The notes beneath the pieces were generated by a model. The model did no database searches. It was not told the DNA's origin and saw only the letters and a program-made list of their open reading frames with translations. A stretch of 64,000 nt of DNA from Haliotis rufescens (taxonomy: Eukaryota). Position 1 is the stretch's first letter; each line of letters begins with the position of its first letter. The translations under genes and the position numbers were made by a program. This document shows, one piece after another, positions 16,410 to 63,142 of the stretch. The DNA is taken from NCBI RefSeq assembly GCF_023055435.1, contig NW_025963979.1, positions 6,820,001 through 6,884,000 of the forward strand, written 5' to 3'.

Positions 16410-16954
16410 ATATATATACTGTTAAGATGTAACATGACAATTCATCCATACTACTAAACAGAAGTAAAACCGCTTGTCCATTCGGATCAATCTGACCAAG
16501 ACCATTCCGCTGATGACAGTCAAATAATGCATACGAATCGAAATCCGTAAAAACTGCAATGGAGACATCATTAAAAGTTACCAAAAGTGACGGGGATATC
16601 AATATTGCTTTTTGAAATGATTCTATGAAATTTGTTTTCCCTGCTTCAATATTTGGAGCACCTGTGACGGAGCCATAAAACTGATCTGTTATGTAGACAA
16701 TATCGCTTGAGGCAATGGCTGCTGGGAACTGATTATGACCTAAATACTCTTCATAGCCTTCGGTGTTAACTTTGTGGCTGTAGAGAGCTGTGCCTTCATC
16801 CAACAGATTATCGAGGTCAGTGGAACACGGTACAGATGCAAATAGATTTGAGCTATGGGACACAAAATATATGAGTGACCAGAGCTACGGCTGTACATTG
16901 AATTCCATTAAACGGTTGAAAAATACTACAGCCTTGATGCAAATTCGCTGACAC
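16410..16954 (-). pseudogene. Herpesvirus large-tegument-type deubiquitinase/deneddylase (peptidase C76) domain remnant, likely transposon-borne
   Basis: VSANLHQGCSIFQPFNGIQCTAVAL (frameshift near 16862), DLDNLLDEGTALY, YALFDCHQRNGLGQIDPNGQAVLLLFSSMDEL. Cut off by a SINE at 16250-16400. Confidence 0.72.
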
Positions 16955-28650: not shown

Positions 28651-31600
28651 GAGACCTCAAGCGATACATGGGTGACCAGCGGTGGTGACCATCCGTGGCG
28701 TGGGTGAAAGATGTTACGTAATACCTATGAACTCTATGGACCTTGGAGACTCCTGAAATAATGGTTACGAGACACGCCCACCTACGTCACGGTGTACAGA
28801 GTTAGCTTCTCTTTACCTGTTCATGATGAACTCAAAGCGCATGACGCTGTTCAGTCGCCAAATAAGCCCGTTACAATTACCTATGACATCGACGTCGAGA
28901 CGGTTCAAGAAGTACCAACGACATATCTCAGTTTAACATGAGCATTAGACCCGTGACGATCCGGGGAGGAAAAGGTCTTCAGCGCCCCATGGTTGCCGTG
29001 AAAGGCGACTGCTTGTCTTATGAGGCGATTAACGGGATCGGGTGGTCAGGCACGCTGACTTGATTGATGCATGGCATCATATCCCAAATGCGACAAACGA
29101 TTAGAAAATGTGTGACTTTATTCTAACACTGTACAAGACACCAGAGGCTACACTGGTGTATGGTCTCTGAAAACACTTCGAGGCGAACGTGGCTCGGGGG
29201 ACTTCAGGCCCGATGGCAAACCTGTTTTATCGATACTTATGGAAGCAAGTCGACTATGGTTATCTTCAATCTTCAAGGACAATTGTGAGCATTTTAATTT
29301 CTGCACAAAGAAAAAATAAAGTATCTGCTTGTCATGGATCAGTTATTGATTAATTATACGATTTTCTGTATGGTAAATTATTTACTGTTATTAAATACAG
29401 AGGACATTTAACACAAGATGGATAGACTCCACGTGTGCGAGCATAGTAAAATATATACCGTTACTCAATACCTAGGGGTATTAATCTTCAAACACAACTC
29501 TGACGAGAATTGTTTTGGAAACAGTGCACTGTTAAGTACTTTGTCCATTGTCTTTGCCCAAAAAACACACTTAAAACAACAAAAAGAAAAGATTCGCCTA
29601 TGGGGCCCACGTTGTCCAGCAACTGATAGTATTCTTTGACGTGACGAAATTGACAATGTGAACACTCTTTGACAGGCGTAGGGAGGGCTTAGAGACCATT
29701 AGAAGGACAGAGTTTGACAACGTGGGAACCGACGCCATAAATACGCTCTGCAATCAGAACGAGACGATGGAAGCTTCCCCACATCATTATATTGTTGTGA
29801 GTGACAACTTGTCGATCACAACTGATTAATGTGTGCACGGTCGCACGGCTGTTTCCAAGATGTAGCAACAGATATGTCTGTATGCTGTTGCAACGTAAAA
29901 AGCACGGGCCACGTATCGACAACGACACTCTAGTCCCAGCCAATTTAAATAGAATCACGAAAACTCGCGATGATTAATTGACGAAAATATCTGCATGTGT
30001 GCTAAGACTTAGAATGTGAAAACAAGCCACTCCGCCGATGAGGAGTATTACTTACAGACAAGACAAAAACGACAAAGGGCGCTTTTCAAGAAATGTCCAC
30101 TTGGCCATTTTTTTCATAACTGTTAGTAATAATCCTTACAGACGGAATAACTTGTTTTCACTTTATAAGTATTAGCAAACATTTAGCTATCTTCGTTAAT
30201 AAAGCATCGCCATATTTCGTGATTATATTTCAAGTGGCGAGGACTAAAGGCTTTGTTTTCATACAGTTCAATCAAGGGCGAGAAATCAATGTCCGCAGAA
30301 CTCACTGGCCCAAACTGTGACACTTAATAAATAAGGTATAATAATGTGATACCATAGCAATGAAATATCGCACCTATTATCGAAACTAAGCGATATGTTG
30401 TGTGGCCACACGTATTACAAAAATATGTTCCGTGTAAATATTACAAATAATTTAAAAACGCAATGTTTGACAAAACAAGATCTTATGACCGTTGGAAATG
30501 TTCATTGGATGTGCTTGAACGGGTATATAATTGGTGGTTTCGTCTTTGACATCAAAAACTGGCGTCACTCAAGTTACCTATATGAGGTTTGAACTCAGAT
30601 CATGCATAACAAGCGAACACAGAGTCCACATGGCCACCTGGGTAAAACTTAATCTTATAACACAAACATCGTGATTGATAAATGCGAGTCTCGTTCCATA
30701 GGCGAGGATAACGAGCAAAATATTCTCTAACACTATCATTGAATATAGATTACAATGCAAACCAACTTATAATAACAGGCAAACATTATTTATACGTTTC
30801 AGACGCTTCACTGTGACGACATTAAGGATAATTCACAACCGAATGGTAAACACAGACATGAATCTTTGAGCATGTAAAACTATTGTACAATGACGGGGCT
30901 GTTTTCATATATTCAGGGGGGGGGACTCTATACCACAATACGTCTGTATGGAAAGGCGCGTCGCACGGATAACCTCTTTCGGGTGCCCTCTTTCAAAACC
31001 ACACACACCTACACGGTACAATGGTTGTGAAAGTGTTCAAATGGCAGGACAATTTCGAAAGTCAATGACGTAGCACTCCATTCCAAGAATCGACTCTATC
31101 AAGACTTTTTCACACTTAAAAGTAAATCAAAGTACTATCTGATACCTGCAATTGTTTAAACATATTAATTGTCAAATTTGAATAATATAAGTACATATCA
31201 GTATAACACGACATGAAGGATATCATTGTACAAATTGTTACTATCATTTGCCAGTCTGAAACGTATAACCAAGACAAGAAAGTAGAAAAGATATCTCAGA
31301 AAATATAATAGCTCAGAAGAAAAATCCGGCACATCTGAAAGCGTGACAACAAAGCCAGTGGTCAGTCAGATGTTTACACACGCTATTACTGGGTATATAC
31401 CAACACTTCGTACGAAATATTAAGATGATGATTTAAAAGAGTTATGGACCATGACCTACCTGCGAGTTGAGGTTAGTTTCGCTTCGGGAAGCGCAGCAAG
31501 GTTAATATCCACCCGATCGCCACTGCAAGCACAGTCTAACTGGGGCATAACTATCACTGAAAGGTGAAGGCCAGCTCCTGTACGTGCTCACTCAACCGAC

Positions 31601-32432: not shown

Positions 32433-35400
32433 GTAACCACATAATCCTCACGCAGCGGCTCATGTAACACTAAACACGCAGTCGCCCCAAGCAGTGTCTC
32501 AGGGGACACTAAACACGCAGTCGCTCCATGCAGTGTCTCAGGTAACACTAAACATGCAGTCGCCCCATGCAGTGTCTTAGGTGACACTAAACACGCAGTC
32601 GCCCCATGCAGTGTCTCATGTAACACCAAACACGCAGTCGCCCCATGCAGTGTCTCAAGTGACACTAAACACGCAGTCGCCCCACGCAGTGTCTTAGGTA
32701 ACACTAAACATGCAGTCGCACCATGCAGTGTCTCAGGTAACACTTAACATGCAGTCGCCCCATGCAGTGTCTTAGGTGACACTTAACACGCAGTCGCCCC
32801 ATACAGTCTCAGGTAACACTAAACATGCAGTCGCCCCATGCAGTGTCTCAGGTAACACTAAACACGCAGTCGCACCATGCAGTGTCTCAAGTGACACTAA
32901 ACACGCATTCGCACCACGAAGTGTCTTAGGTAACACTAAACATGCAGTCGCCCCATGCAGTGTCTCAGGTGACACTAAACATGCAGTCGCCCCATGCAGT
33001 GTCTTAGGTAACACTAAACATGCAGTCGCCCCATGCAGTGTCTCAGGTGACACTAAACATGCAGTCGCCCCATGCAGTGTCTTAGGTGACACTAAACCTG
33101 CAATCGCCCCACGCAGTGTCTTAGGTAACACTAAACATGCAGTCGCGCAACGCAGTGTCTTAGGTAACACTAAACATGCAGTCGCCCCATGCAGTGTCTC
33201 ATGTAACACTTAACATGCAGTCGCCCCATGCAGTGTCTGAGGTAACACTAAACATGCAGTCGCCCAACGCAGTGTCTTAGGTAACACTAAACATGCAGTC
33301 GCCCCATGCAGTGTCTCAGGTGACACTAAACATGCAGTCGCCCCATGCAGTGTCTTAGGTGACACTAAACATGCAGTCGCCCCATGCAGTGTCTTAGGTA
33401 ACACTTAACATGCAGTCGCCCCATGCAGTGTCTTAGGTAACACTAAACATGCAGTCGCCCCATGCAGTGTCTCAGGTGACACTTAACATGCAGTCGCCCC
33501 ATGCAGTGTCTTAGGTAACACTTTACATGCAGTCGCCCCATGCAGTGTCTTAGGTAACACTAAACATGCAGTCGCCCCATGCAGTGTCTTAGGAAACACT
33601 AAACATGCAGTCGCCCCATGCAGTGTCTCAGGTGACACTAAACATGCAGTCGCCCTGTACAGTGTCTCAGGTAACACTTAACATGCAGTCGCCCCATGCA
33701 GTGTCTCAGGTGACACTAAACATGTTGTCGCCCTATGCAGTGTCTCAGGTAACACTTAACATGCAGTCGCCCCAAACAGTGTCTCAGGTAACACTAAACA
33801 TGCAGTCGCCCTATGCAGTGTCTTAGGTAACACTAAACATGCAGTCGCTCCACGTAGTGTCTTAGGTGACACTAAACCTGCAGTCGCCCTATGCAGTGTC
33901 TCAAGTGACACTAAACATGCAGTCGCCCCACGCAGTGTCTTAGGTAACACTAAACATGCAGTCGCCCTACACAGTGTCTTAGGTAACACTAAACATGCAG
34001 TCGCCCCATGCAGTGTCTCAGGTGACACTAAACATGCAGTCGCCCCATGCAGTGTCTTAGGTGACACTAAACATGCAGTCGCCCCATGCAGTGTCTCAGG
34101 TAACACTAAACATGCAGTCGCCCCATGCAGTGTCTCAAGTGACACTAAACACGCAGTCGCCCCACGCAGTGTCTTAGGTAACACTAAACATGCAGTCGCA
34201 CCATGCAGTGTCTCAGGTAACACTAAACATGCAGTCGCCCCATGCAGTGTCTTAGGTGACACTTAACACGCAGTCGCCCCAAACAGTGTCTCAGGTAACA
34301 CTAAACATGCAGTCGCCCTATGCAGTGTCTCAGGTAACACTAAACATGCAGTCGCCCCATGCAGTGTCTCAGGTGACACTAAACACGCAGTCGCCCCATG
34401 CAGTGTGTCAAGTGACACTAAACACGCAGTCGCCCCACGAAGTGTCTTAGGTAACACTAAACATGCAGTCGCCCCATGCAGTGTCTCAAGTGACACTAAA
34501 CATGCAGTCGCCCCACGCAGTGTCTTAGGTAACACTAAACATGCAGTCGCCCAACGCAGTGTCTTAGGTAACACTAAACACGCAGTCGCCCCATGCAGTG
34601 TCTCAGGTAACACTAAACATGCAGTCGCCCCATGCAGTGTCTTAGGTGACACTAAACACGCAGTCGCCCCATGCAGTGTCTCATGTAACACCAAACACGC
34701 AGTCGCCCCATGCAGTGTCTCAAGTGACACTAAACACGCAGTCGCCCCACGCAGTGTCTTAGGTAACACTAAACATGCAGTCGCACCATGCAGTGTCTCA
34801 GGTAACACTAAACATGCAGTCGCCCCATGCAGTGTCTTAGGTGACACTTAACACGCAGTCGCCCCAAACAGTGTCTCAGGTAACACTAAACATGCAGTCG
34901 CCCTATGCAGTGTCTCAGGTAACACTAAACATGCAGTCGCCCCATGCAGTGTCTCAGGTGACACTAAACACGCAGTCGCCCCATGCAGTGTGTCAAGTGA
35001 CACTAAACACGCAGTCGCCCCACGAAGTGTCTTAGGTAACACTAAACATGCAGTCGCCCCATGCAGTGTCTCAAGTGACACTAAACATGCAGTCGCCCCA
35101 CGCAGTGTCTTAGGTAACACTAAACATGCAGTCGCCCAACGCAGTGTCTTAGGTAACACTAAACACGCAGTCGCCCCATGCAGTGTCTCAGGTAACACTA
35201 AACATGCAGTCGCCCCATGCAGTGTCTTAGGTGACACTAAACACGCAGTCGCCCCATGCAGTGTCTCATGTAACACCAAACACGCAGTCGCCCCATGCAG
35301 TGTCTCAAGTGACACTAAACGCGCAGTCGCCCCACGCAGTGTCTTAGGTAACACTAAACATGCAGTCGCACCATGCAGTGTCTCAGGTAACACTAAACAT

Positions 35401-38400
35401 GCAGTCGCCCCATGCAGTGTCTTAGGTGACACTTAACACGCAGTCGCCCCATACAGTGTCTCAGGTAACACTAAACATGCAGTCGCCCTATGCAGTGTCT
35501 CAGGTAACACTAAACATGCAGTCGCCCCATGCAGTGTGTCAAGTGACACTAAACATGCAGTCGCCCCATGCAGTGTGTCAAGTGACACTAAACATGCAGT
35601 CGCCCCACGCAGTGTCTTAGGTAACACTAAACATGCAGTCGCCCAACGCAGTGTCTTAGGTAACAATAAACATGCAGTCGCCCCATGCAGTGTCTCAGGT
35701 AACACTAAACACGCAGTCGCCCCATGCAGTGTCTCAGGTAACACTAAACATGCAGTCGCCCCACGCAGTGTCTTAGGTAACACTAAACATGCAGTCGCCC
35801 AACGCAGTGTCTTAGGTAACACTAAACATGCAGTCGCCCAATGCAGTGTCTCATGTAACACTTAACATGCAGTCGCCCCAAGCAGTGTCTTAGGTGACAC
35901 TAAACATGCAGTCGCCCCATGCAGTGTCTCAGGTAACACTAAACACGCAGTCGCCCCATGCAGTGTCTCATGTAACACCAAACACGCAGTCGCCCCATGC
36001 AGTGTCTCAGGTGACACTAAACACGCAGTCGCCCCACGCAGTGTCTTAGGTAACACTTAACATGCAGTCGCACCATGCAGTGTCTCAGGTAACACTAAAC
36101 ATGCAGTTGCCCCATGCAGTGTCTTAGGTGACACTAAACCTGCAGTCGCCCCACGCAGTGTCTTAGGTGACACTAAACATGCAGTCGCCCAACGCAGTGT
36201 CTTAGGTAACACTAAACATGCAGTCGCCCCATGCAGTGTCTCATGTAACACTTAACATGCAGTCGCCCCACGCAGTGTCTTAAGTGACACTAAACATGCA
36301 GTCGCCCAACGCAGTGTCTTAGGTAACACTAAACATGCAGTCGCCCCATGCAGTGTCTTAGGTGACACTAAACATGCAGTCGCCCCATGCAGTGTCTTAA
36401 GTAACACTTAACATGCAGTCGCCCCATGCAGTGTCTTAGGTAACACTTAACATGCAGCCGCCCCATGCAGTGTCTTAAGTAACACTTAACATGTAGTCGC
36501 CCCATGCAGTGTCTTAGGTAACACTAAACATGCAGTCGCCCCATGCAGTAACCACATAATCCTCACGCAGCGGCTCATGTAACACTAAACACGCAGTCGC
36601 CCCATGCAGTGTCTCAGGTAACACTAAACATGCAGTCGCCCCACGCAGTGTCTTAGGTAACACTAAACATGCAGTCGCCCAACGCAGTGTCTTGGGTAAC
36701 ACCAAACACGCAGTCGCCCCATGCAGTGTCTCAAGTGACACTAAACACGCAGTCGCCCCACGCAGTGTCTTAGGTAACACTAAACATGCAGTCGCACCAT
36801 GCAGTGTCTCAGGTAACACTAAACATGCAGTCGCCCCATGCAGTGTCTTAGGTGACACTTAACACGCAGTCGCCCCATACAGTGTCTCAGGTAACACTAA
36901 ACATGCAGTCGCCCTATGCAGTGTCTCAGGTAACACTAAACATGCAGTCGCCCCATGCAGTGTCTCAGGTGACACTAAACATGCAGTCGCCCCATGCAGT
37001 GTGTCAAGTGACACTAAACATGCAGTCGCCCCACGCAGTGTCTTAGGTAACACTAAACATGCAGTCGCCCTATGCAGTGTCTCATGTAACACTAAACATG
37101 AAGTCGCCCCATGCAGCGGCTCATGTAACACTAAACACGCAGTCGCCACATGCAGTGTCTCAGGTAACACTAAACATGCAGTCGCCCCACGCAGTGTCTT
37201 AGGTAACACTAAACATGCAGTCGCCCAACGCAGTGTCTTAGGTAACACTAAACATGCAGTCGCCCCATGCAGTGTCTCATGTAACACTTAACATGCAGTC
37301 GCCCCAAGCAGTGTCTTAGGTGACACTAAACATGCAGTCGCCCCATGCAGTGTCTCAGGTAACACTAAACACGCAGTCGCACCATGCAGTGTCTCATGTA
37401 ACACCAAACACGCAGTCGCCCCATACAGTCTCAGGTAACACTAAACATGCAGTCGCCCCATGCAGTGTCTCAGGTAACACTAAACACGCAGTCGCCCCAT
37501 GCAGTGTCTCAGGTAACACTAAACATGCAGTCGCCCCATGCAGTGTCTTAGGTGACACTTAACACGCAGTCGCCCCATACAGTGTCTCAGGTAACACTAA
37601 ACATGCAGTCGCCCCATGCAGTGTCTGAGGTAACACTTAACATGCAGTCGCCCCATTCAGTGTCTCATGTAACACTAAACATGAAGTCGCCCCATGCATT
37701 GTCTCAGGTAACACTAAACATGCAGTCGCCCCATGCAGTGTCTCAGGTTACACTAAAGATGCAGTCGCCCAACGCAGTGTCTTAGGTAACATTCAACATG
37801 CAGTCGCCCCATGCAGCGGCTCATGTAACACTAAATATGCAGTCGCCCCATGCAGTGTCTCAGGTAACACTAAACATGCAGTCGCCCCATGCAGTGTCTC
37901 AGGTGACACTAAACACGCAGTCGCCCTATGCAGTGTCTCAGGTAACACTAAACATGCAGTCGCCCCATGCAGTGTCTCAGGTAACACTAAACATGCAGTC
38001 GCCCCACGAAGTGTCTTAGGTAACACTAAACATGCAGTCGCCCTACGCAGTGTCTTAGGTAACACTAAACATGCAGTCGCCCCATGCAGCGGCTCATGTA
38101 ACACTAAACACGCAGTCGCCCCATGCAGTGTCTTAGGTGACACTAAACCTGCAGACGCCCTATGCAGTGTCTCAAATGACACTAAACATGCAGTCGCCCC
38201 ACGAAGTGTCTTAGGTAACACTAAACATGCAGTCGCCCCATGCAGTGTCTCATGTAACACTAAACATGCAGTCGCCCCATGCAGCGGCTCATGTAACACT
38301 AAACACGCAGTCGCCCCATGCAGTGTCTCAGGTAACACTAAACATGCAGTCGCCCCATTCAGTGTCTTAGGTGACACTAAACATGCAGCCGCCCCACGCA

Positions 38401-39550
38401 GTGTCTTATGTGACATTAATCATGCAGTCGCCCCATGCAGTGTGTCATGTAACACCAAACATGCAGTCGCCCCATGCAGTGTCTCAAGTGACACTTAACA
38501 TGCAGTCGCCCCATGCAGTGTCTCAGGTGACACTAAACATGCAGTCGCTCCATGTAGTGTCTTAGGTAACACTAAACCTGCAGTCGCCCCATGCAGTGTC
38601 TCAAGTGACACTAAACATGCAGTCGCCCAACGCAGTGTCTTAGGTGACACTAAACATGCAGTCGCCCAACGCAGTGTCTTAGGTAACACTAAACATGCAG
38701 TCGCCCCACGCAGTGTCTCAGGTAACACTAAACATGCAGTCGCTCCACGTAGTGTCTTAGGTGACACTAAACCTGCAGTCGCCCTATGCAGTGTCTCAAG
38801 TGACACTAAACATGCAGTCGCCCCACGCAGTGTCTTAGGTAACACTAAACATGCAGTCGCCCAACGCAGTGTCTTAGGTAACACTAAACATGCAGTCGCC
38901 CCATGCAGCGGCTCATGTAACACTAAACACGCAGTCGCCCCATGCAGTGTCTTAGGTGACACTAAACCTGCAGTCGCCCTATGCAGTGTCTCAAGTGACA
39001 CTAAACATGCAGTCGCCCCACGCAGTGTCTTAGGTAACACTTAACATGCAGTCGCCCCATGCAGTGTCTCATGTAACACTAAACATGCAGTCGCCCCATG
39101 CAGTGTCTGAGGTAACACTTAACATGCAGTCGCCCCATTCAGTGTCTCATGTAACACTAAACACGCAGTCGCCCCATGCAGTGTCTCAAGTAACACTAAA
39201 CATGCAGTCGCCCCACGCAGTGTCTTAGGTGACACTAAACATGCAGCCGCCCCACGCAGTGTCTTATGTGACATTAATCATGCAGTCGCCCCATGCAGTG
39301 TGTCATGTAACACTAAACATGCAGTCGCCCCATGCAGTGTCTCAAGTGACACTAAACATGCAGTCGCCCCATGCAGTGTCTCAGGTGACACTAAACATGC
39401 AGTCGCCCCATGCAGTGTCTTAGGTGACACTAAACACGCAGTCGTCCCATACAGTGTCACAGGTGACCCGAAACACGCAGTCGCCCCACGCAGTGTCTCA
39501 GGTGCACTAAACATGCAGTCGCCCCATGCAGTGTTTTAGGTAACACTAAG
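32433..39550. repeat. 39-bp satellite array, ~7.1 kb (~180 monomers), with local 585-bp higher-order repeats
   Basis: Monomer AAACATGCAGTCGCCCCATGCAGTGTCTYAGGTRACACT. Blocks 34263-34847 and 34848-35432 are near identical (15 monomers each). Confidence 0.98.
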
Positions 39551-39551
39551 T

Positions 39552-40133
39552 TGATAAGTTCTGAGCCCCACACTGAAAGGGTTTACCTAAAGACGTTAAC
39601 ATTATTTATGCAGGCCTTCTTTTGGCTGTCCAAAATGTTCTCCACAGCTGCTATGGCGTCTTCGTTCGAGTCGAATCGGGTTCTGGATGGAGCTTTCTTC
39701 ATGTTCGGGAACTGATTGGAGTCAGGCGGAGCCAGATCATGAGAATAAGGTGGTTGATGAAGGTGTTCAAAGCTCCACGCGTTGACTGTAGCCAGAGTAA
39801 TGCCTAGTTTGTGTACTGGTCCATTATCCCTTGGAAGTGCACAGTCATTTCTCAGCTTCCCACATCTCTTAGTCTTAATTTCATCCTATAATTGTATTAA
39901 AATTGCAGCATAATATGTTCCGTTAATTGCCTCTCATTTTGTAAAGACAGTCCACAATGATGACGACATCGGCAGCCCAGAACACAGAGGACATAACCTA
40001 ACCTGTTGACGGCATAGTCTTTGCCTTCTTTGGGTGTGGTGATGCCAAATGCTGACTGTTTTGAATATTGGTTGGGCTCATGCTGGAAAAGGTGAACCAG
40101 ATACAAATCGTAGCAAGAAGCTTTCCGGGAATT
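39552..40133 (-). pseudogene. Decayed mariner (DD34D) transposase, 3' part, running into the gap
   Basis: Minus-strand translation gives SPHPKKAKTMPSTG, VMSSVFWAAD, DNGPVH and QPPYSHDLAPPDSNQFPNMKK..RFDSNEDAIAAVE, matching mariner HPPYSPDLAPSD. Stops and frameshifts are present. Confidence 0.88.
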
Positions 40134-40318
40134 NNNNNNNNNNNNNNNNNNNNNNNNNNNNNNNNNNNNNNNNNNNNNNNNNNNNNNNNNNNNNNNNNNN
40201 NNNNNNNNNNNNNNNNNNNNNNNNNNNNNNNNNNNNNNNNNNNNNNNNNNNNNNNNNNNNNNNNNNNNNNNNNNNNNNNNNNNNNNNNNNNNNNNNNNNN
40301 NNNNNNNNNNNNNNNNNN
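40134..40318. other. Assembly gap
   Basis: Run of N. Confidence 1.
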
Positions 40319-51505: not shown

Positions 51506-52940
51506 AGATACTTTATATTACTCTTTGAACTTTGCCCTCTGCCTAGTGACGTCAACACGTTCGGCCATGTGTGAACGTAACAATATGGCCAACCGCTATA
51601 TTGTATTGATCAAATGTAATGGCTGAGCCAACCTATATACTTTGAAACATTCACAATATAGCAACGACTCGATCGACGATGGCACAGCCTTCCCCTCTTT
51701 TGTATTTTGAAGGACACTAAACATTCATATGTTTGGAATTTTAAAGGTGATCGGGTATATTTAGTGTACGTGTAGCCGAATTACAACACTTGCTACAATG
51801 CATTACTACCTAAACTACCAAACTCAAATTGACATTTTTGTTATTTGCATTCAGGCAGCATGTTTTGTGTCTGTACCTTGTGACCACCAAAAGCACCCAT
51901 ACACCTCCAAAATGCTGTAATAGCGCTTAGTTTCCCCACGGACACGCCTATTCTTTAGGAAAGCTTAGGCAGCATGCTTCACCAGTCGCACAACTTTGGC
52001 GCCGTTTCAGAAGACGTGATAGGAAAGAAACAGTAATTAATTTAGTACAATCTCTAAGTTGGTGGATGAATGCTCATATGGTCAGAATTGTACAATTGAC
52101 TCTGCTTTTGGCAGATTTCTTATGAATATGGAAAGGGTTTTGTGGCTTTTATTGTAAAATGTAACAGTTTATACAATGTGTGTGACGTGAAAATACAGCT
52201 TAAACATGTGGAGGATATCCAGAATTTTCATCGGATCAGATGAAATTCGAAATACGGGTCGTGATATGTACAAATACTGACATTTGTATCTGTTAAATGT
52301 GTTTTGACAAGATCTACCAAGGAACACATAGAGGACTGTCTCATTTGTCATTAATCAACAATACCATTATATATATGTCACATCTTCCCAAGGCAAGGGA
52401 GTTAACTGACTATAAAAGTCTAGTTTCCACCCTTGCCGAACTAGGCTGGCATTATGGAGTTATATTTGGGCTGGACTAACGAGTCTATGCATCGCGTAAT
52501 GCAATCGACATCCGGTTCGTAAACTGTCATACAGATTTCGGTCACGTGCAGGATTTGCAAAGCACGTCTACCGCCAGCTCGGGATCAAAAAATATTTTCA
52601 AAATCATTTCATGTTTTAAATCAAAGTGCTTACGTGATTTGATGCACTTCGTGTGAAGTAAGACCCGTTTTATTACAATATACAGTTCATGGGCGGATAC
52701 AGCTTTTTTGAAAAGGGGGGTGCACAATTAAGATCTATTTATTGTCTTTGGTGGTAATTTATACAGAAATAAAGATTTTATTTCGAAATAAAAAGGGGGG
52801 GGGGGGGGGGGGGGGGGGGTTCGCGCACGGGAAGATGATATGTGAAAGCCATACACACCTTGGAAGCCACACTCTTACGCTGGCAATAATGGAAATATGT
52901 GGTCATTGCTTACAGAGTAACTCAGTGAGGACACCATGTA

Positions 52941-53191
52941 GGTTTTATTTGGTTTGTTTGTTGTTTAACGCCGCACTCAGCAATATTCCAGCTATATGGC
53001 GGCGGTCTGTAAATAACCGAGTCTGGACCAGACAATCCAGTGATTGACAGCATGAGCATCGATCCACGCATTTGGGATCGATGACATGTATCAACCAAGT
53101 CAGCGAGCCTGACCACCCGATCCCGTTAGTCGCCTTTTACGGCAAGTATGGGTTGCTGAAGACCTATTCTACCCCGGAATCTTCACACGTG
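52941..53191 (-). mobile_element. SINE family A copy with 14-bp TSD
   Basis: GAGGACACCATGTA at 52927-52940 and 53192-53205. Confidence 0.9.
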
Positions 53192-53415
53192 GAGGACACC
53201 ATGTACTGCAAAAATGTACAATTAATGTATTAAGAATGTATACATACAAATCATAAATACAAAACAACTTCTTAATTTAAACATTATCAATCATGCAATA
53301 TTAATGAACAATTTTATTCGTACTTAAATATATTGTTTAACGACGTACAATAATTAACATCAATCAGGACTTTACATAACTTACGGTATCTGATAATAAA
53401 TTATGAGTCATAATG

Positions 53416-54890
53416 AGTAGTATAGAGTCAGTAGGCAGGAACCTTTTTTGGTTGATCCGGTTGATCCAGGCGGATGCGAAGGTGATTGGCTGATCCAAGT
53501 CACGTGATCGGATAGGATGACTCATGCATCAACAGCGCGTCACAGGTGAGGGGGAATGAAAGGTGTGTGTTTATAAGACAGAAAAGAATTCATAATAAAA
53601 CAAAAGTAAAAGGTTATGAATAGAGCTATGTGTATAGCGTGCTGCCTTGAATAGACAGACCGTACCCGTCAGCCCAGTTTGAATTGAGCGCGCTTGACAA
53701 CTGACGTGGCCTCGTCGTTTAACCCACGCTCGCTAGAGCGTGCGATCTGGTTTGATGAATGAAGGGTGTGTGTTGAAAGTACAAGTACCACAATAGAGAC
53801 GGGTTATGTCAACACGATATACGCCGTGTAATGTAGGGAAAAAAAATTGTACGTCTAGCTGGATCAAATCCATCTTATACGGTCTACACGTTGTACACCA
53901 TGAACGTTCGACAACCTGTATGGAAAAAAAAAAATATAGACAAAATAGATAAGACTACGCAATCAGCAAGCTAGCAGTTTACGTTTAGCGCGCAAGAACG
54001 AGCTAATGTATAGCAGAGAGACTAAGCGACCGGCCGCCCATAACAATGTCAACATACACTACCTTACAATTAATGTTAATATAACAGCCTCGCCTGAAGC
54101 TTCCCATTCATAAATTGTGTGACCAGTGTCCCGTATTTATGATATGTTAGGGAAGATGTGTTGTACATTTGTTATTGTAAAAGGGAGTTATTTCAGAGAG
54201 GATATATATATGGGTATTCCCCTCATTAAACCTTTCTTTCGTTGGTGTCTATTAAACGTATCCGGTATTTAATACATTTGAATGATGTAGGAAAGTATGT
54301 GCGTGTAGATGTTGTACCTATATCCGAACACGAATGTATGACACCTTTCAATAGATCAATTACGGTTATAACCACGACACGCAACATGACTATGAGCGTG
54401 GTTAGCAGTTCATATTTTTTAAACACATCGTAAATGACAGATTTCTGATGAATGAACTCGCCCGCACACATGTCTATAGGGTTATGTTCGCCCGAACTGT
54501 AAACAGTGACACATTGATAACAGGAAGGGTGTGTGGAATGCACTCGTCCTTGTAAGGGTAAAATACGCGTTTAAACGCACCATTTAAATGATGACGACAT
54601 TACTTTTTAGATGTATTGGTATCAGTGAGTGAGTGAATTTAGTTTTACGCCACACTCGGCATTATTCAAGCTCTAGGACGGTGGTCTGTCAATAAACGAG
54701 CTTGGACCAGACAATCCAGTGATCAACAGCATGAGCAGCGATCTGTGCAACTAGGAACCGATGGCACGTGTCATCCGAGTCGGACCAACCGATCCCCGTC
54801 AGTCGCCGATAAGCATGGGTTACTGAAGGTCGATTTTTATAACCCGGGACCTTCACGGGTGTAGTATGACGAAGACTATATACTAATATG
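53416..54890 (+). repeat. Left terminal inverted repeat (~1475 bp)
   Basis: Reverse complement of 57583-59064. The match ends at GAAGACTATATACTAATATG / CATATGAGTATATAGTCTTC. Confidence 0.97.
54625..54860 (-). mobile_element. Diverged family A SINE inside the left TIR (mirror copy 57613-57848, + strand)
   Basis: Family A body with an (ACTC)n tail, at the same position in both TIRs. Confidence 0.9.
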
Positions 54891-55039
54891 ATCGCTTTTT
54901 TAACATACTCACAAGTGTGCTGTGAAGAAAAGAGTGTCTTCCAAGAATCCCTGCACGTGTAAGACAGTATAAACTCTACAGTAGTGTACCCCGACAAACA
55001 GTTTTACTCTCGCCAGCAAACGGATTGGACGTGAACAAC

Positions 55040-55336
55040 ATGAAGAAAGCATCAGAGATTAGACTTGACCCTAGAGATATATTTAGGAAGACTACGTTGA
55101 GAAAATCACAACAGAGAAAGAAACCACAAGCAGCCAAGAAGTCGACGCTGAAGACAAAGAAGAGACAGGTAACACCTAAAATGAAAACGATGACAACCCA
55201 ACAGGGATCGAAGACAACACCCCAACCCGTGAAAATACAACATGTGTCGGAGGTGAAGGCTGTGGTGGAACGGGCAATTGCTGCCTTGAAGCGTCAACAG
55301 AGTCAAGGGTATAAAAGAAAGCTTCATACCCTCTAA
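55040..55336 (+). CDS. Small Lys/Thr-rich basic protein (~98 aa) of the Polinton-like element, function unknown
   Basis: ATG at 55040 in AACAACATGA context, TATAAA at 54968, highly basic sequence, same strand as the neighbouring element genes. Confidence 0.55.
   Translation: MKKASEIRLDPRDIFRKTTLRKSQQRKKPQAAKKSTLKTKKRQVTPKMKTMTTQQGSKTTPQPVKIQHVSEVKAVVERAIAALKRQQSQGYKRKLHTL
55310..55316 (+). promoter_or_regulatory. TATA box for the ZnF-ATPase gene
   Basis: TATAAAA starts 49 nt upstream of a strong Kozak start (CACCATGG, ATG at 55359) and lies inside the end of the previous ORF. Confidence 0.55.
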
Positions 55337-55358
55337 TCGCACACCGTATTGGATCACC

Positions 55359-57109
55359 ATGGGGGTTGCCACCTGTCCGGACTGTGAAAAAATGTTTTCA
55401 AGGAGAGATGTCATGTTACGACACAGGAGAAATAAACATAGCATACCGCCGCCGCCGTTACAAGCCCATCCGCTACCGCCGCCGCCGCCGCAAATCCACC
55501 CGCCATTACAAGCCCACCCGCTAACGCCGCCGCCGCCGCAAGTCCACCCACCGCCGCCGCTGCGTCAAGCCAACCCGCCGTTCAGCCCATCCGCCGCCGC
55601 CGCCGCCGCCGCCGCCGCCATCGCAAGTCCACTCGTGGCTGCCTCATTTACCATGCATATCTGATCTTCGAGAACAATTCAAGTTCCTGATTCCCTCAAA
55701 TGCGCTCGTTGTGGGACCCAGTGGTTGTGGAAAGTCTGTGTTTACCTCTCATGTTCTCCGGCATGGCCTGATCCAACCCCAACCTACCCGCATCGTTTGG
55801 TGTTATACTCAATGGCAGCCATTATATAAGGACCTCGGTGAGCAGCTGCCTCAGCTGACCTTTGTCAAAGGAATTCCCTACGATATCTTGGACGAGGATT
55901 ACTTTGATGCTCGTCAACAGAACGTGTTGGTCCTGGATGATTTCCTGGCCGAAGCAAAGCACGACAAGCGTATTTCGCGGTTGTTTACTCAAACCTCACA
56001 TCACAAGAATGTATTGATCTTTCTCTTGATACAAAATCTGTTTCCGAGAGGTAAGGAATCGAGAGACATTGCTTTGAATGCGCATTATGTGACCCTGTTT
56101 CATTCCCCCATAGATAAACAGCAAATCAAACTCTTCGCTCGTAGAATTTTCCCCGAACATATGGATCACTTTATGGCTATGTATGAAAAGGTTACTGAAA
56201 CACCCTATGGACAACTCACCATCGATCTAAAACCTACCACCAAAGATAAGGATCGACTGCATGTTAACCTCATAAATGAGGAAAACAGGAGAACAACAGC
56301 ACAGTCTGAACCTGATCTGCGTAGGGAGAAGTTGACTACAACAGAATCTCTGGATCGTCCTCTGACACAAGAAGAGAGATTGCCCCAACATCAGCTCACG
56401 CCAATTGAAACCGATTCAGACACGAGTAGTGAGACATCATTGACTATGGCCACGGCTTGCGCAGATTGCGGGGTGCTGATAGATAACATGCACGATCTAC
56501 AGCGACATATCAAACACTGGTGTCCGGCCAATAGCCTTCAACCTAAGAGAAAGCGTGCCAGGCTCGAGAGTGATGACGATGACAGTGACTTTGACGACCT
56601 AGCCTCTTCCCAGAAAGGCAGTGGTCTTGCCGTCAAACCTCCACGTGGGAAGTCAACATTCACTAATATGGAAGCCGAGGAGTGGCAAAATGTAGGCTTA
56701 CAACGCATCTGGAAGCAGGTGTACGATACGTTTCATGTCAAGATGAAACTGCAGAAAAAAACAGTACGAGCGACAGGGACGAACGCAAGAATGGATTGAG
56801 AGACGATTGAAACTGAGGTGGGAGGATCTAGTGCGTAGTACTCTCAACTATGCGATGGAATATACCACGTACTTTAAAGAGGCACCTCTGTTTCAAAACA
56901 TGCTATACAACCTGGGAGACATGAATCCCTCCACGGAACAATCCGTTCTCAAAAATAAAATCAAACTCCTCCTAAAACCCAAGATGAAAGAGATCCTGCC
57001 TTTGATGGATATGCCGGAAATAGAAAGTGAGACTGAATCTGATAGCGTTGCAGAGGATAACGACGGTGATGACGAGGAGGAGGATGATGACCGTGAGCAG
57101 AACGATTAG
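55359..57109 (+). pseudogene. C2H2 zinc finger / Pro-rich / Polinton A32-like (FtsK-HerA) packaging ATPase / zinc finger / helical domain fusion, broken by two frameshifts
   Basis: CPDCEKMFSRRDVMLRHRRNKH; Walker A ALVVGPSGCGKS; IVWCYTQWQPLY; Walker B VLVLDD; SHHKNV..LIQNLF..GKESRDIALNAHY; CADCG..HDLQRHIKHWC. ORFs 55359-55664, 55711-56799 and 56807-57109 join into ~580 aa after restoring 2 bp near 55583 and removing one A from the A7 run at 56755-56761. Confidence 0.85.
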
Positions 57110-57155
57110 GCATAAATACCCATCACTACTATATCAGTCTAACAGTCTGAAGAGA

Positions 57156-57461
57156 ATGCCGAGTCAACGCCACGCGTCTAGTTTGATTCATATTTTGAAA
57201 ACACCTCGTAAACTGAGGCGTTTGAACGATAAGAAACGCCGAATTTCACTGTACGTGAGAGGAATGGTGAAACTGGGGCCTCCTGGACGGAAATCGTTAC
57301 AAGCAATGGATAAAGCATAGACTATAGACAACCATTCAACCTTAAAACAGCGTAGAAAAGGAAACATTCAACAGTGCGAAATGTGTTTCAAAACGTGGAC
57401 TCGCTGTTTAAACAATAGGGCCTTCGAGCAGCAGCAGCAGCATGTGTATATGAGTGACTAA
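57156..57461 (+). pseudogene. Small basic ORF of the element; probable premature TAG at 57318-57320, with the frame continuing through a CxxC motif
   Basis: ATG at 57156 follows CATAAATA (57111) and ATCAGT. The frame stays open after the TAG (TIDNHSTLKQRRKGNIQQCEMCFKTW...) to TAA at 57461. AATAAA lies near 57533, followed by a GT/T-rich tract. Confidence 0.4.
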
Positions 57462-57582
57462 ATAATGTTCCAGAGTGAATACTATTGTCCATTCGTATAT
57501 CACGGCTTTGTATGGAACCGATTGGCTCGAATCAATAAATGATACGAATGAATTGTTTGGGTTTTTTTTCTCAGTTTGTTTG

Positions 57583-59064
57583 CATATGAGTATATAGTCT
57601 TCGTCATACTACACCCGTGAAGGTCCCGGGGTATAAAAATCGACCTTCAGTAACCCATGCTTATCGGCGACTGACGGGGATCGGTTGGTCCGACTCGGAT
57701 GACACGTGCCATCGGTTCCTAGTTGCACAGATCGCTGCTGATGCTGTTGATCACTGGATTGTCTGGTCCAAGCTCGTTTATTGACAGACCACCGTCCTAG
57801 AGCTGGAATAAAGCCGAGTGGGGCGTAAAACTAAATTCACTCACTCACTGATACCAATTATACATCTAAAAAGTAATGTCATCATCATTTAAATGGTGAG
57901 TTTAAACGCGTATTTTACCCTTACAAGGACGAGTGCATTCCACACACCCTTCCTGTTATCAAATGTGTCACTGTTTACAGTTCGGGCGAACATAACCCCA
58001 TAGACATGTGTGCGGGCGAGTTCATTCATCAGAAATATGTCATTTACGATGTGTTTATAAATATAAACTGCTAAACCACGCTCATAGTCATGTTGCGTGT
58101 CGTGGTTAGAACCGTAATTGATCTATTGAAAGGTGTCATACATTCGTGTTCGGATATAGGTACAACATCTTCACGCATTTACTTTTCCTACATCATTCAA
58201 ATGTATTAAATACCGGATACGTTTAATAGACACCAACGAAAGAAAAGTTTAATGAGGGGGGGAATACCCATATATATCCTCTCTGAAATAACTCCCTTTT
58301 AAAATATCAAATGTACAACACATCTTCCCTAACGTATCATAAATACGGGACACTGCTCACACCATTTATGAATGGGAAGCTTCAGGCGAGGCTGTTATAT
58401 TAACATTAATTGTAAGGTAGTGTATGTTGACATTGTTATGGGCGGCCGGTCGCTTAGTCTCTCTGCTAAACATTAGCTCGTTCTTGCGCGCTAAACGTAA
58501 ACTGCTAGCTTGCTGATTGCGTAGTCTTATCTATTTTGTCTATATATATTTTTTTTTTCCATACAGGTTGTCGAACGTTCATGGTGTACAACGTGTAGAC
58601 CGTATAAGATGGATTTGATCCAGCTAGACGTACATTTTTTTCCCTACATTACACGGCGTATATCGTGTTGACATAACCCGTCTCTATTGTGGTACTTGTA
58701 CTTTCAACACACACCCTTCATTCATCAAACCAGATCGCACGCTCTAGCGAGCGCGGGTTAAACGACGAGGCCACGTCAGTTGTCAAGCGCGCTCAATTCA
58801 AACTGGGCTGACGGGTACGGTCTGTCTATTCAAGGCAGCACGCTATACACATAGCTCTATTCATAACCTTTTACTTTTGTTTTATTATGAATTCTTTTCT
58901 GTCTTATAAACACACACCTTTCATTCCCCCTCACCTGTGACGCGCTGTTGATGCATGAGTCATCCTATCCGATCACGTGACTTGGATCAGCCAATCACCT
59001 TCGCATCCGCCTGGATCAACCGGATCAACCAAAAAAGGTTCCTGCCTACTGACTCTATACTACT
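57583..59064 (-). repeat. Right terminal inverted repeat (~1482 bp)
   Basis: Reverse complement of 53416-54890, with about 30 differences by eye, mostly in the inner half. Confidence 0.97.
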
Positions 59065-60444
59065 ATAATGTTTTTCTAAGGAGTCATCACAACAAAACGA
59101 GACTCATGACGTCTTCATTGAAAAGTAAAAAGTAATTTTCAATCATTACACAAACAGTCCTCTACTGTTTAATATGAGCTGTTTGCGTACTAATGTAAGG
59201 TCAATGTATTGAAATATCTTTGCATTTAATTAATAATACGGTCGTTTTGGTGTTTTGAAGCGTTTTCAAGAAGCACAAGACACGATTTTCAGATCCGTAA
59301 TACAAAAACTGCACCATCAGTAATCAGCATGTGTTTGAAACATGCGTCAAAACCTGGGACCCTGCTCCTCTAAAATCGTGCAATGAATGCTATAAGTTAC
59401 CAGTGTTAGCAAGTACAAGGATTTTTAAATGATTATGATGGCCAATGCAAGAAATTATGTTGTGTTTTCAGAAGATAATGATATTACTGCCAAACAAGCT
59501 TAAGAAACACAGCACCTTGGCACAGCAGGCGTTCCACTGCAAGGGATGAATCTATTTCCACTGAACAGGGGACAGCGGTGGATTGTGTAATGCACGTGCT
59601 CAACTGTATTTGTCAATGCGCCACTTCGAAACGACTCAGTCGTTGACATCGCTGACCCACGAGCAAACCTTCCACCCCTGCTGTTGTTATGGACTGTACA
59701 GATTATGCTGATTAGCGGATTCTGAGCCTGGATTTATGTTTGTTTAGCAGTATCTCATGAAGAAATATGGCTCATTTACATTGCTTGGTTTCATGTTGAA
59801 TAAGCCTCCATGTTGACATGTACTGGTGCCTATATATTGCATTGGCTACCAGAAAAATAACATAAGGTGGCCGGTGGCTCCATTTGAAAAAGATTTTTTT
59901 CCGAAGACCTACTGAAACCATCTTGTCATAGTATTATAATCATAATATAATTATGGTTCTCCCTTTCATTAGACTCCTAGTCTGGTATGTATTAAGGTCA
60001 GCTAAGGGTCATTCTCAATCACCCAGGGTACCGCACACACAAGGTAGTGGAACTGGATATTTCAGACGGACACATTGGTTCATTAAGGATCTGCTGTTAC
60101 AGCCTTATTGTCATCCTTAATGAAATACGGGGTACATATATCATTCAATATAACATATTGACAAAGTTGTTTGCATGAACAATATGATTCGTCCTTCACT
60201 TTGCCTTTCTTGTTGATCATCTGCTGTTCCGATGTGTTTTAAGCTTCTAAATGCCAATTGAAGAAATAGATCATGTTTTTGTAAAAGTCATGATGGGTAC
60301 CCAGTTTGTGCTTTGTTCGTCCAACACATAACCAACTTGATCCTCCACACTGCCACAGAGTGCGAGGCACATTCTTGGTGGGTGTGAATTCCCACTTAAT
60401 ACACTCACTCAGCCTCTCTCTCTCTAGTCTCATCAGTTTCCCCA

Positions 60445-60482
60445 TCATTCCACAATGTAGCAAACCAGAGTACTAGGTGAAT
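60445..60482 (-). CDS. Host gene terminal coding exon (DSPSTLVCYIVE-stop), followed by 3' UTR
   Basis: Acceptor tttcattttcag in phase 1, TGA at 60447-60445. Supplies a plausible final RRM beta strand. Confidence 0.7.
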
Positions 60483-60519
60483 CTGAAAATGAAAGTAAAT
60501 AACAATTGAACAATACTCT

Positions 60520-61825
60520 ACCTAGATTTAATGTAACATACTGTAACAAGGTATATAATTAATGTAACATATTGTCACTAAGAATAGAATTAATGTAACA
60601 TACTGTAACCATGAACAAAATTAATGTAACATATTGTAACAAAGAATATATGTAAAACACTGTAACCATAAATAGAATTAATGTAACATACCAGTACTAT
60701 AACCATGAATAGAATTAATGTAACATACCAGTACTATAACCATGAATAGAATTAATGTAACATACCAGTACTATAACCATGAATAAAATTAATGTAACAT
60801 ACGAGTACTGTAACCATGAATAGAATTAATGTAACATACTGTAACCATGAACAAAATTAATGTAACATATTGTAACAAAGAATATATGTAAAACACTGTA
60901 ACCATAAAGAGAATTAATGTAACATACTGTTACCATGAATAGAATAAATGTAACATACCAGTACTATAACCATGAATAAAATTAATGTAACATACGAGTA
61001 CTGTAACCATGAATAGAATTAATGTAACATACTGTAACCATGAATAGAATTAATGTAACATACCAGTACTATAACCATGAATAAAATTAATGTAACATAC
61101 GAGTACTGTAACCATGAATAGAATTAATGTAACATACTGTAACCATGAATAAAATTAATGTAACATACTGTATCAAAGAATATAATTAATGTAACATACC
61201 AGTACTGTAACCATGAATAAAATTAATGTAACATACCAGTACTGTAACCATAAACAGAATTAATGTAACATACTGTTACCATGAATAGAATTAATGTAAC
61301 ATACCAGTACTGTAACCATGAATGGAATTAATGTAACATACGAGTACTGTAACCATGAATAGAATTAATGTAACATAATGTAACCATGAATAGAATTAAT
61401 GTAACATACTGTATCAAAGAATATAATTAATGTAACATACCAGTACTGTAACCATGAAAAGAATTAATGTAACATACTGTAACCATGAAAAGAATTAATG
61501 TAATATACTGTAGCAAAGAATAGAATTAATGTAACACACTGTAACCATGAATTAATTAACATACTGTAACCATGAATGGAATCAATGTAACATACTGCAA
61601 CAATGAATATATGTAACATATTGAATGTAACACTGTTACCATGAATAGAATTAATGTAACATACTGTAACAATGAATATATGTAACATACTGTAACCATG
61701 AATAGATTTAATGTAACATACTGTAACAATGAATATATGTAACATACTGTAACCATGAGCAGATTTAATGTAACATACTGTAACAATGAACAGAATTAAT
61801 GTAACATACTGTAACAAAGAATATC
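60520..61825. repeat. AT-rich intronic minisatellite, ~31-36 bp unit (GAATTAATGTAACATAC[CAGTA]CTGTAACCATGAATA)
   Basis: Roughly 40 degenerate tandem copies visible. Confidence 0.95.
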
Positions 61826-61989: not shown

Positions 61990-62387
61990 CTATCAGAAAT
62001 ACAGAACAGTAACATTATTATCAAACGAGAACAATTAATTCGAAAAACATACTCTATGAGATCATGAAAAAAAAGAATGTTTAATATATTTGGAGGGGTA
62101 AAATATGTGTGAGGTTTATTTTGCAAATTTGTTCTTTCATAAACTCCTTCAATCAGACAGACAGCATGGACAGATAATTCATTTCAGTAATCAGGCCACC
62201 GGCCCATAATATATAATATAGCATGATAAATCATGCATGCTCAAGTAAAATACACCCATTATTTATATACATGACAAAAAGGTATAAGGTATTTCTTAAA
62301 ATTTACCTCCATTCCAGTGGATCCCCATAAGTACACAAGAGTCAGACTCGGAAACTGTATTGAAACACCTCTTGTTTTAAGTCTTAC

Positions 62388-63142
62388 CTGAATCTCATAG
62401 CACCTCTCCCATCAGAAAGTGTCTTCTTCTGGGACTCCAAAACCACTCCATAAGCTGAAACCATTTCCTCTAATTCGGTAGTGTTTCCATCTTTAGGGAC
62501 ACCTTCAATCTGTATTACATTTGCACCAACAATTGTCCAAGAATCTGTGTGTTGTAAAGGAGGTCCCTTCATATGTTTCACATCACAGGAGTCTGATACA
62601 ACTGTTTTCTTTGAGTCTATCTTACCACCACTCATGTCTTTTACGTCTGCTTCCACTGGGAGAGGTTCCCTCAGGGGAGATAACTCTAACATAGGCTTCA
62701 CAGTAACATTTTCTTTACCAGGAATTCCCTCTGCATCACAAATCACATACTTGTCTCTCATAGTACCATCAGAATTCAAATCTATATCCATATGCTGAGA
62801 TTCTGTATCAACCATTCTGGTTTCGCTTCTGTTTTTATTTTCTGATTTTCGTTTCTTCTTTGACTTTTTGTCTTTCATTGGTTCGAAAATAATGTCTACA
62901 TTTGTTACTTTCTTGCTTAGTCTTGGTGGTAAAGGTGAGAACGTCCTCACCGATGTAGCTGCATTGTTGGTATTAGTGTTCACATCATTTTGAGGTGCTC
63001 CTCCAAGTGTTGGGAAATCATTTTTAGATTTGACATCAAAAGATTTAGTATGTTTCGGAGGTGGTAGAAAAGGGCGACTCACCATCCCTCTCTGTGATGG
63101 CAGCAGGATTTCTTCCTGATTCTCTTCATCAGACATGTAACA
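62388..63142 (-). CDS. Host gene coding exon (755 bp): low-complexity region, basic NLS-like patch and start of an RRM-like domain
   Basis: Acceptor ttttctag, donor gtaaga, 250-aa open frame ending VIQIEGVPKDGNTTELEEMVSAYGVV...AMRF, phase 2. Confidence 0.88.

Follow-up and report, generated by a model that had tools for sequence, protein, structure and literature searches.

The window, meaning the whole stretch of 64,000 nucleotides analysed here, contains an element of 5,649 bp (53416-59064) that holds a gene for a putative DNA-packaging motor. The features of the element around this gene are as follows.

53410..53415, left target-site duplication ATAATG, identical to the six bases at 59065-59070
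53416..54890, + strand, left terminal inverted repeat of 1,475 bp, which begins with AGTAGT and is 97.2% identical to the right arm over 1,487 columns
54642..54864, short dispersed repeat within the inner end of the arm, with a mirror copy in the right arm and 10 further matches in the window (73-82% identity)
55040..55336, + strand, basic ORF of 98 aa, of which the first 43 aa are 97.7% identical to the start of the Haliotis cracherodii model P0003
55310..55317, + strand, TATA-box-like TATAAAAG, 49 nt upstream of the finger ATG (context ACCATGG)
57158..57320, + strand, doubtful short basic ORF (54 aa from ATG), with no homologue among 3,207 ORFs and varying among sequencing runs
57534..57539, + strand, AATAAA after the stop codon, a possible polyadenylation signal by its sequence motif
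57583..59064, - strand, right terminal inverted repeat, which pairs with the left arm and closes with ACTACT
59065..59070, right target-site duplication ATAATG, equal to 53410-53415

The element at 53416-59064 is a non-autonomous Polinton/Maverick. It shares with this group the (AGT)2//(ACT)2 ends, the 6-bp target-site duplication, the long inverted repeats, and a related packaging ATPase; a profile of the extended ATPase family retrieves compact ATPases adjoining pPolB and rve integrase. The genes that mark an autonomous Polinton, namely those for pPolB, retroviral-like integrase, major and minor capsid proteins, and protease, are lacking. A tblastn search with reference proteins (E 0.01) found no match to polymerase, integrase, capsid, or protease in the window, and the 2.7-kb interior, which contains only the 98-aa basic ORF, the packaging-motor gene, and the doubtful short ORF, is too small for pPolB and integrase together. 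Judged from its sequence, the element would be unable to copy, insert, or coat itself, and the motor gene is its only large gene. The original prediction was concerned with the gene and missed the more interesting fact that this gene is the cargo of a complete non-autonomous mini-Polinton.

Some smaller features of the element were also analysed. The dispersed repeat is present in both arms and therefore entered before the arms were last made alike. No homologue of the 98-aa ORF was found besides P0003, and a kinship with the small basic ORFs upstream of the ATPase in the related loci L016 and L032, noticed by eye, was unsupported on comparison. Of 27 related loci, which are not independent of one another, 11 have a TATA-like box 25-65 nt ahead of the finger ATG, versus 3% at random positions. 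The Rfam search gave nothing in 52000-60500.

The layout of this short element is real outside the assembly of the window, because pieces from the public runs X1 and X12 link the interior to the arms. Overlapping X1 pieces connect the two arms by way of the 98-aa ORF and the gene, with no single piece spanning the interior, and an X12 piece with a depth of 1,254 runs from the interior into the right arm. The depths of the X12 contigs along the interior (900-2,000, with no single-copy stretch as a reference) suggest that the element is present in many copies. Half or more of the sampled words are present in 20 of the 24 listed runs, which come from 10 studies and bear four organism labels, and one of them may be the source of the window. 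In a small-RNA run, 1 read of 21.6 million fell on the element, which has no bearing on expression.

The gene is distributed over three reading frames.

55359-55664, + strand, frame 1, with an ATG start: C2H2 finger and proline repeats, followed by a drift into poly-Ala
55525-56799, + strand, frame 2, open: poly-Pro, Walker A (GPSGCGKS), second finger, and the beginning of the helical tail
56747-57109, + strand, frame 3: remainder of the helical tail and acidic end

Joined, the frames give the following parts of the protein.

55359..55445, + strand, gene start and C2H2 zinc finger 1, with helix residues R(-1), D(+2), V(+3), and R(+6) (PF00096, E 2.7e-4, below cut-off)
55446..55620, + strand, proline-rich repeat linker with the first frame break at ~55575-55595, from sequence repeats
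55675..56274, + strand, FtsK/HerA (A32-like) packaging ATPase core with retained motifs (138/199 residues identical to the homologue P0005)
56275..56448, + strand, variable linker, predicted to be disordered (predicted model and alignment)
56449..56532, + strand, zinc finger 2 of the CCHC type, then a basic PKRKRAR stretch (22/26 identical to P0005)
56641..57022, + strand, conserved helical domain of ~110 aa with the second frame break at the A run 56755-56761 (homologue alignment)
57023..57109, + strand, acidic end and stop codon, from the translation

Sequence comparison indicates that the three ORFs together make up a single broken gene, which encodes a DNA-packaging motor of the virus type with zinc fingers. 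Intact single-ORF homologues include P0005 (560 aa), P0006 (516 aa), and Mytilus proteins of 531-565 aa. The original prediction had proposed tblastn for intact copies as a check; a tblastn search with the intact homologues showed that residues 1-66, 23-447, and 439-558 of P0005 and residues 1-46, 10-400, and 409-516 of P0006 match the three frames in order, with E values ranging from 9e-12 to 1e-148. The arrangement of the frames is not due to chance, because intact single-ORF homologues match them in this order. The unjoined middle frame, when used as the query, gave 37 matches among 6,244 candidates, including natural single-ORF proteins with the whole architecture. In the parts for which no identity is listed above, the window and P0005 share 15/27 residues in finger 1, 7/33 in the linker, and 19/40 and 42/88 in the two tail parts. 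The earlier proposals that the three ORFs are one gene and that its domains are ordered as ZnF, poly-Pro, packaging ATPase, ZnF, helical domain, and acidic end are both borne out by the intact homologues (516-560 aa), which are collinear with all three frames. A near-identical spliced copy, the RefSeq model XP_071107702.1 (P0003) of H. cracherodii, is continuous across the second break, with identities to the window of 37/40 and 86/88 on either side; it omits the region of the first break and is thus uninformative there. This match makes an abalone the probable host. The RefSeq name of this model, 'eIF5B-like', is a misnomer, and the model is chimeric, consisting of the ORFs of the window element and a lysine-rich repeat.

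In the window, the gene has two breaks, each in a low-complexity stretch. The proline run crosses from frame 1 into frame 2 at ~55575-55595, where, as had been proposed, the repeat near 55575 is a shorter version of the one at 55452. The switch from frame 2 to frame 3 is the A run at 56755-56761, and the earlier placement of the switch at this run was confirmed. Four public runs were compared with the window over 54860-57620. At the A run, the window is at odds with the contigs that have all the depth in X1 and X12 and 3,457 of 5,731 in X5. For the first break, the number of gaps in the spanning X1 contig, whose positions are not displayed, fits a break that is not shared, and presumably X1 does not share this break either. 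The window copy departs from the runs at many other positions, and each break may therefore be either a mutation or an assembly error. An inspection of raw reads at both indels had been suggested; the comparison established the absence of the second break from the dominant contigs of three runs.

It is highly improbable, and already largely refuted, that each ORF is a gene of its own or that an intron or a programmed frameshift connects the three. This reading could draw on the split forms in the relatives L012, L016, L037, and L040 and on the ability of the finger-plus-helical module to stand alone. However, P0005 and P0006, which are the nearest relatives of full length, each have a single ORF, the H. 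cracherodii model and the dominant contigs of the three runs lack the second break, and no donor- or acceptor-like site was found in 55441-55700. An intron at the first break was rejected for want of strong splice-like sites, and a programmed frameshift at the A run was rejected because the break is absent from the dominant contigs of other runs and from the H. cracherodii model. In L012:1809-2662 and L016:1288-1635, the finger frame stops right at Walker A and the ATPase goes on in another frame, possibly across an intron.

Structure prediction, which had been proposed for the reconstructed protein, was done on the intact P0005 (mean pLDDT 66.5, pTM 0.42) and gave four ordered units separated by low-confidence linkers; the packaging-ATPase fold was recovered, and the helical domain had no clear match. 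The best PDB match of the P0005 core was STIV2 B204 (E 2e-6), with RecA/Rad51 folds close behind, and its matches among viral models were A32-like ATPases, IVa2, an adintovirus FtsK-like protein, and Sputnik V3. Pox_A32 scored above the cut-off in the Mytilus homologues. The Walker A, Walker B, SHH, and QN motifs are similar in the extended and compact groups of ATPases and are kept in the window. Walker A, Walker B, the Q-sensor strand, and the fold (the last from the P0005 model) are those of the A32-like FtsK/HerA ATPases. The PDB sequence search found nothing significant for P0001 or the tail profile.

The two zinc fingers differ in character. Among 127 distinct sequences of finger 1, the last ligand is histidine in 123, R(-1) is present in 88, D(+2) in 61, and R(+6) in 113, and all three of the latter occur together in 56; such fingers contact bases through helix positions -1, +2, +3, and +6, and we take this pattern to be the signature of base-reading fingers. 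Finger 2 is of the CCHC type in 130 of 140 sequences, its helix positions are variable, and position -1 is occupied by T, S, N, or D. These patterns fit a putative base-reading role for the N-terminal finger only and not for finger 2. A single zinc finger reads only 3-4 bases, and finger 1 of the window would, by the recognition code as we understand it, read GCG. This triplet occurs 32 times in the window arm versus 22.3 (0 of 100 shuffles), a result that came from a series of 28 tests and did not recur in six other arms. Repeated 6-8-mers in the arms are above shuffles in L030, marginal in L020, and not above them in the other five, and no repeated site common to the seven inverted ends was found. 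The original prediction, that the flanking fingers could provide sequence-specific recognition of the element's own DNA, is thus supported in part, in that it fits finger 1 by its signature and does not fit the variable CCHC finger 2.

The helical domain alone has a confident predicted fold (pLDDT 92.8). It gave no Pfam family above the cut-off (16 members), no BFVD match (E 0.001), and no Atlas match, and its best VIA structural match (Z 6.5, rmsd 3.5, 62 aligned) is typical of unrelated helical pairs; these missing matches do not establish a new fold. The finger-2/helical/acidic module forms its own ORF in L023:2135-3022 and L034:1357-2055, and the helical domain alone is present in L085:10663-11229; two of these ORFs lie on the opposite strand.

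The profile search found 2,122 representatives at E ≤ 1e-30, compact forms among them. The best 150 of the 2,122 comprise 16 with both fingers and the tail, 43 with finger 2 and the tail, 59 with other partial sets, and 32 with none, many of the gene calls being cut. The named hosts are Haliotis, Mytilus, Pinctada, and the coral Oculina. The predicted finger-ATPase-tail architecture is thus widespread in marine invertebrate data and not unique. In the viral contig collection, two scans without a positive control confirmed 0 of 91 and 0 of 129 pattern matches as relatives.

For the comparison of gene content, we used 94 loci: the best 80 among 530 confirmed loci from metagenomes and, from the genome collection, the 14 of 57 matches that were confirmed. 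A fixed rule divided these into 49 extended and 45 compact loci, with L038, L066, and L067 counted as compact, though their DNA belongs to an extended family. A tree of 107 ATPase cores explains the extended label with 4 changes, versus 35 with shuffled labels, and places 56 extended and 2 compact-labelled rows on one branch (SH-aLRT 87; FastTree 0.94). The tree gives moderate support to the extended ATPases being one clade, found in molluscs and a coral, and the clustering is partly by design, because the search was seeded with extended proteins. The C-terminal extensions vary by subclade (L004:345-1544, L081:6469-7830, L086:822-2270, L029, and L030). Complete elements have an ORF downstream of the ATPase that is matched by the extensions of L004 (E 3e-7) and L086 (E 2e-7), suggesting that the ATPase acquired tails more than once. 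In L019:472-1971, one frame of 500 aa combines a finger, poly-Pro, the ATPase, a finger-like motif, and a Polinton maturation protease; the protease part matches stand-alone proteases (E 3e-23), and a minor-capsid-like ORF lies upstream. The contigs of L081-L094 carry animal-type Polinton genes and are filed in bacterial genome bins, probably through host contamination.

The two forms of the ATPase occur in different gene contexts. Among the 94 loci (best 80 of 530 plus 14), a replication/integration gene and a capsid-module gene are present together in 0 of 49 extended loci, many of them on short contigs, versus 15 of 45 compact loci. The corresponding numbers are 0/22 versus 14/25 on contigs of at least 3 kb and 0/12 versus 14/16 on contigs of at least 5 kb, a length reached by only 12 of the 49 extended loci. 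The Fisher values of ~1e-5 overstate independence, several loci being near-copies. Where 2 kb or more of upstream sequence exists, all 15 of 15 compact loci of the same sample carry pPolB, compared with 1 of 12 extended loci. The compact count agrees with the earlier statement that Polinton ATPases are normally compact, and a fusion that is standard in autonomous Polintons, which would have lowered the novelty, was not found among these loci. Labels of pPolB and integrase were assigned by Pfam and those of protease by weak Pfam matches. The major capsid label relies on similarity to a 439-450-aa ORF of complete elements and on an Atlas lead (PF21738 on 30% of members, below the recognition threshold). 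The minor capsid label was given by position and by a motif that we take to be characteristic. Among the relatives checked (best 80 of 530 plus 14), the long motor was found only in stripped-down or cut-off elements and never in one seen complete.

The reduced elements are of three kinds. The first carries only the ATPase and small ORFs and comprises the window element, L081, the L005/L015/L028/L031 family, and L016. L081 is a complete element of 5,384 bp (AGTAGT//ACTACT, target duplication ACTATG, 622-bp arms 99% identical) with an intact 454-aa ZnF-ATPase frame and no polymerase, integrase, or capsid match. The termini of the L005/L015/L028/L031 family lie on different contigs and give ~4.9 kb by addition; the right arm of L028 was not found within its contig. 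L016 is a 4.2-kb element with inverted arms and an extended ATPase, and it carries a CARD-RING ORF as cargo (L016:3211-3735, Pfam CARD E 2.4e-13). The second kind combines a capsid module with the ATPase (L030, L020, L021, L082, and L086); L030 extends from AGTAGT at 139 to ACTACT at 5254, and its target-site duplication is not clean. In L020:1005-5297, L021, L030:139-5254, and L082:277-3797, we observed the major capsid, protease, extended ATPase, and, except in L082, minor capsid genes, and no polymerase or integrase was seen. The third kind has integrase and/or pPolB beside the ATPase and no capsid gene in sight (L006, L009, L010, L012, L044, and L091). Some of these loci may belong to complete elements, because all of them are cut or degraded on at least one side.

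Comparison of related copies provided insight into whether the gene is in use. The ATPase core of L081 gave dN 0.015, dS 0.116, and dN/dS ~0.13 against L008 and dN 0.137, dS 1.18, and dN/dS 0.12 against L004, whereas the degraded L015/L028/L031 copies gave dN/dS ~0.4-0.55, indicating weak constraint. Between the window and the runs, 13 of 20 coding differences are synonymous (p 3e-4 versus an assumed 26%; among the differences listed, 40 of 47). The codon differences show the signature of purifying selection acting on the ATPase of relatives that have the same reduced layout. This pattern suggests that the gene is used, or was until recently, in the small-element lineages, with single copies decaying.

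We propose that the element is a packaging satellite, which uses its own DNA-reading motor to enter the capsids of a helper; we hold this reading tentatively, at slightly less than an even chance. The polymerase, integrase, and capsid would be borrowed from a full Polinton, and the element's own ATPase would be expressed from a host-polymerase-II promoter and assemble as a ring. The N-terminal finger, multiplied around the ring, would grip the element's own DNA, and the motor would dock on the helper capsid and load the small genome into it, competing with the compact motor of the helper. The CCHC finger, helical domain, and acidic end may be protein-contact modules. The analysis established the element ends, target duplication, missing core genes, one-gene structure, fold and motifs, selection, and association with reduced elements; we infer expression, a ring, DNA preference, and docking. 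PICI/SaPI phage satellites redirect helper packaging via the small terminase. The window element may work like these satellites, an analogy that we likewise rate as just short of evenly balanced. The proposed logic is alike, in that a small element encodes its own DNA-recognising packaging part. Unlike the phage satellites, with which there is no homology, the window element is eukaryotic, has a whole ATPase fused to the reader, and has a putative helper dependence, deduced from sequence.

A pure satellite role does not cover the whole clade, because extended ATPases also occur beside integrase/pPolB and in elements with capsid genes. A bolder scheme is a Polinton lineage of marine invertebrates with a divided (multipartite or cooperative) genome. 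In this scheme, polymerase/integrase segments (L010, L006, L009, and L012), capsid segments (L020, L030, and L082), and ATPase-only satellites (the window element, L081, the L028 family, and L016) would each carry their own cis-acting DNA-reading motor and be packaged separately into shared capsids; we consider it unlikely. The motor may instead have been repurposed for a nuclear job apart from capsids, as a DNA-tethered translocase or regulator that aids excision, copying, integration, or switching on. The finger, proline/glutamine linker, and acidic end do resemble a transcription factor, the PKRKRAR stretch after finger 2 is, as we take it, a possible nuclear signal, and the finger-plus-helical module occurs without the ATPase in L023 and L034 and the helical domain alone in L085. 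Extended ATPases also adjoin integrase and/or pPolB with no capsid gene seen in L006 (8.7 kb downstream without one), L009, L010, L012, and L044. However, in the capsid-module elements L020 and L030, no ATPase other than the long one was seen between the arms, where it adjoins capsid and protease genes, and the motifs of the packaging family are unchanged; we give a nuclear job only a modest chance.

The small elements could alternatively be passive deletion derivatives that carry, unused, the long ATPase of an unsampled full-length Polinton lineage. The loci L010, L044, and L091, which are cut short or degraded and have pPolB sequence beside the extended ATPase, would agree with such an origin, as would the two breaks of the window copy, the shortness of most contigs, and the sampling of the best 80 of 530 confirmed metagenome loci. 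On the other hand, the long extended loci are complete in 0 of 12 cases versus 14 of 16 for compact ones (best 80 of 530 plus 14), several unrelated small families all retain the gene, related small-element copies show purifying selection, and the window's family has an excess of synonymous differences. We consider a passive origin rather improbable. An interference factor appears more doubtful still: the long ATPase would poison or rival the motor of a large DNA virus, be it a helper Polinton or a different one, and limiting that virus would be why the element is kept. Extra domains on an oligomeric motor could act dominantly, and cargo such as the CARD-RING ORF of L016 hints at host-virus conflict. 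Nevertheless, the catalytic motifs, which a pure poison would not need, are retained, and the capsid-module elements have the long ATPase as the only ATPase seen.

The packaging satellite that we favour can be compared with known systems. Non-autonomous Polintons are reportedly listed in Repbase and by Kapitonov and Jurka (2006), and the class is therefore not new in itself. The window element resembles non-autonomous DNA transposons (MITE-like) in keeping the ends and needing the enzymes of a helper, and differs from them in keeping one large gene of a distinct ATPase clade, which is under purifying selection in related families. Its ATPase shares the fold, Walker A/B, and Q-sensor region with the A32/FtsK-HerA ATPases (STIV2 B204, giant-virus A32-like, virophage V3, and adenovirus IVa2), to which the window family adds a C2H2 finger, a proline/glutamine linker, a CCHC finger, an acidic end, and a helical domain without a clear Pfam, PDB, or BFVD match. 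The gene has ~580 codons, in contrast to frames of 210-240 aa in the complete elements compared. According to PMC8097293, intact vertebrate Polinton/Maverick elements (polintoviruses, adintoviruses) are 12.7-24.6 kb long; the inverted repeats given there measure 46-1,447 bp, and the group has end motifs (AGT)2//(ACT)2 or (AG)3//(CT)3 and a 6-bp target duplication. The window element is alike in its end motifs, 6-bp duplication, long inverted repeats, and FtsK/HerA packaging ATPase, and unlike in its length of 5.6 kb, its lack of pPolB, integrase, protease, and capsid genes, and its arms of 1,475 bp, slightly beyond that published range.

At the level of titles and the beginnings of abstracts, we found no description of a finger-fused Polinton ATPase or of ATPase-only small Polintons, and supplements may list small elements. 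Neither form is mentioned in the accessible portions of PMC11131425, bioRxiv 2023.08.22.554363, PMC8502044, PMC11161782, bioRxiv 2025.04.19.649669, PMC11296320, PMC6431247, PMC10294476, and PMC8097293. A figure legend names an H. rufescens pPolB, which is evidence only that abalone Polintons exist, and the same source states that Polinton virions have not been observed (bioRxiv 2023.08.22.554363). The abstract of PMC8097293 leaves open by what means Polintons select their DNA for packaging and if they spread as particles in the first place. A motor with its own candidate DNA reader would allow a direct test of packaging choice with one small finger and one short element, and selection on a packaging ATPase in capsid-less elements would indirectly indicate that helper capsids are made in these animals. 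A published screen, as described in PMC11131425, demands capsid, penton, and ATPase within 10-50 kb; it cannot see elements of 4-6 kb, and a layer of Polinton satellites or segments may thus be missing from the counts.

Elsewhere in the window, a 258-aa frame at 16108-16884 (-) has a weak Herpes_teg_N match (E 2.4e-4, below cut-off). Frames of 287 and 250 aa at 27793-28656 (-) and 62384-63136 (-) have no Pfam matches, and the former presumably resembles the C-terminal part of a LINE protein. A 39-bp unit is repeated 183 times at 32452-39549, with an assembly gap of N right after it (~39950-40140), and a 31-bp satellite occupies 60523-61823.
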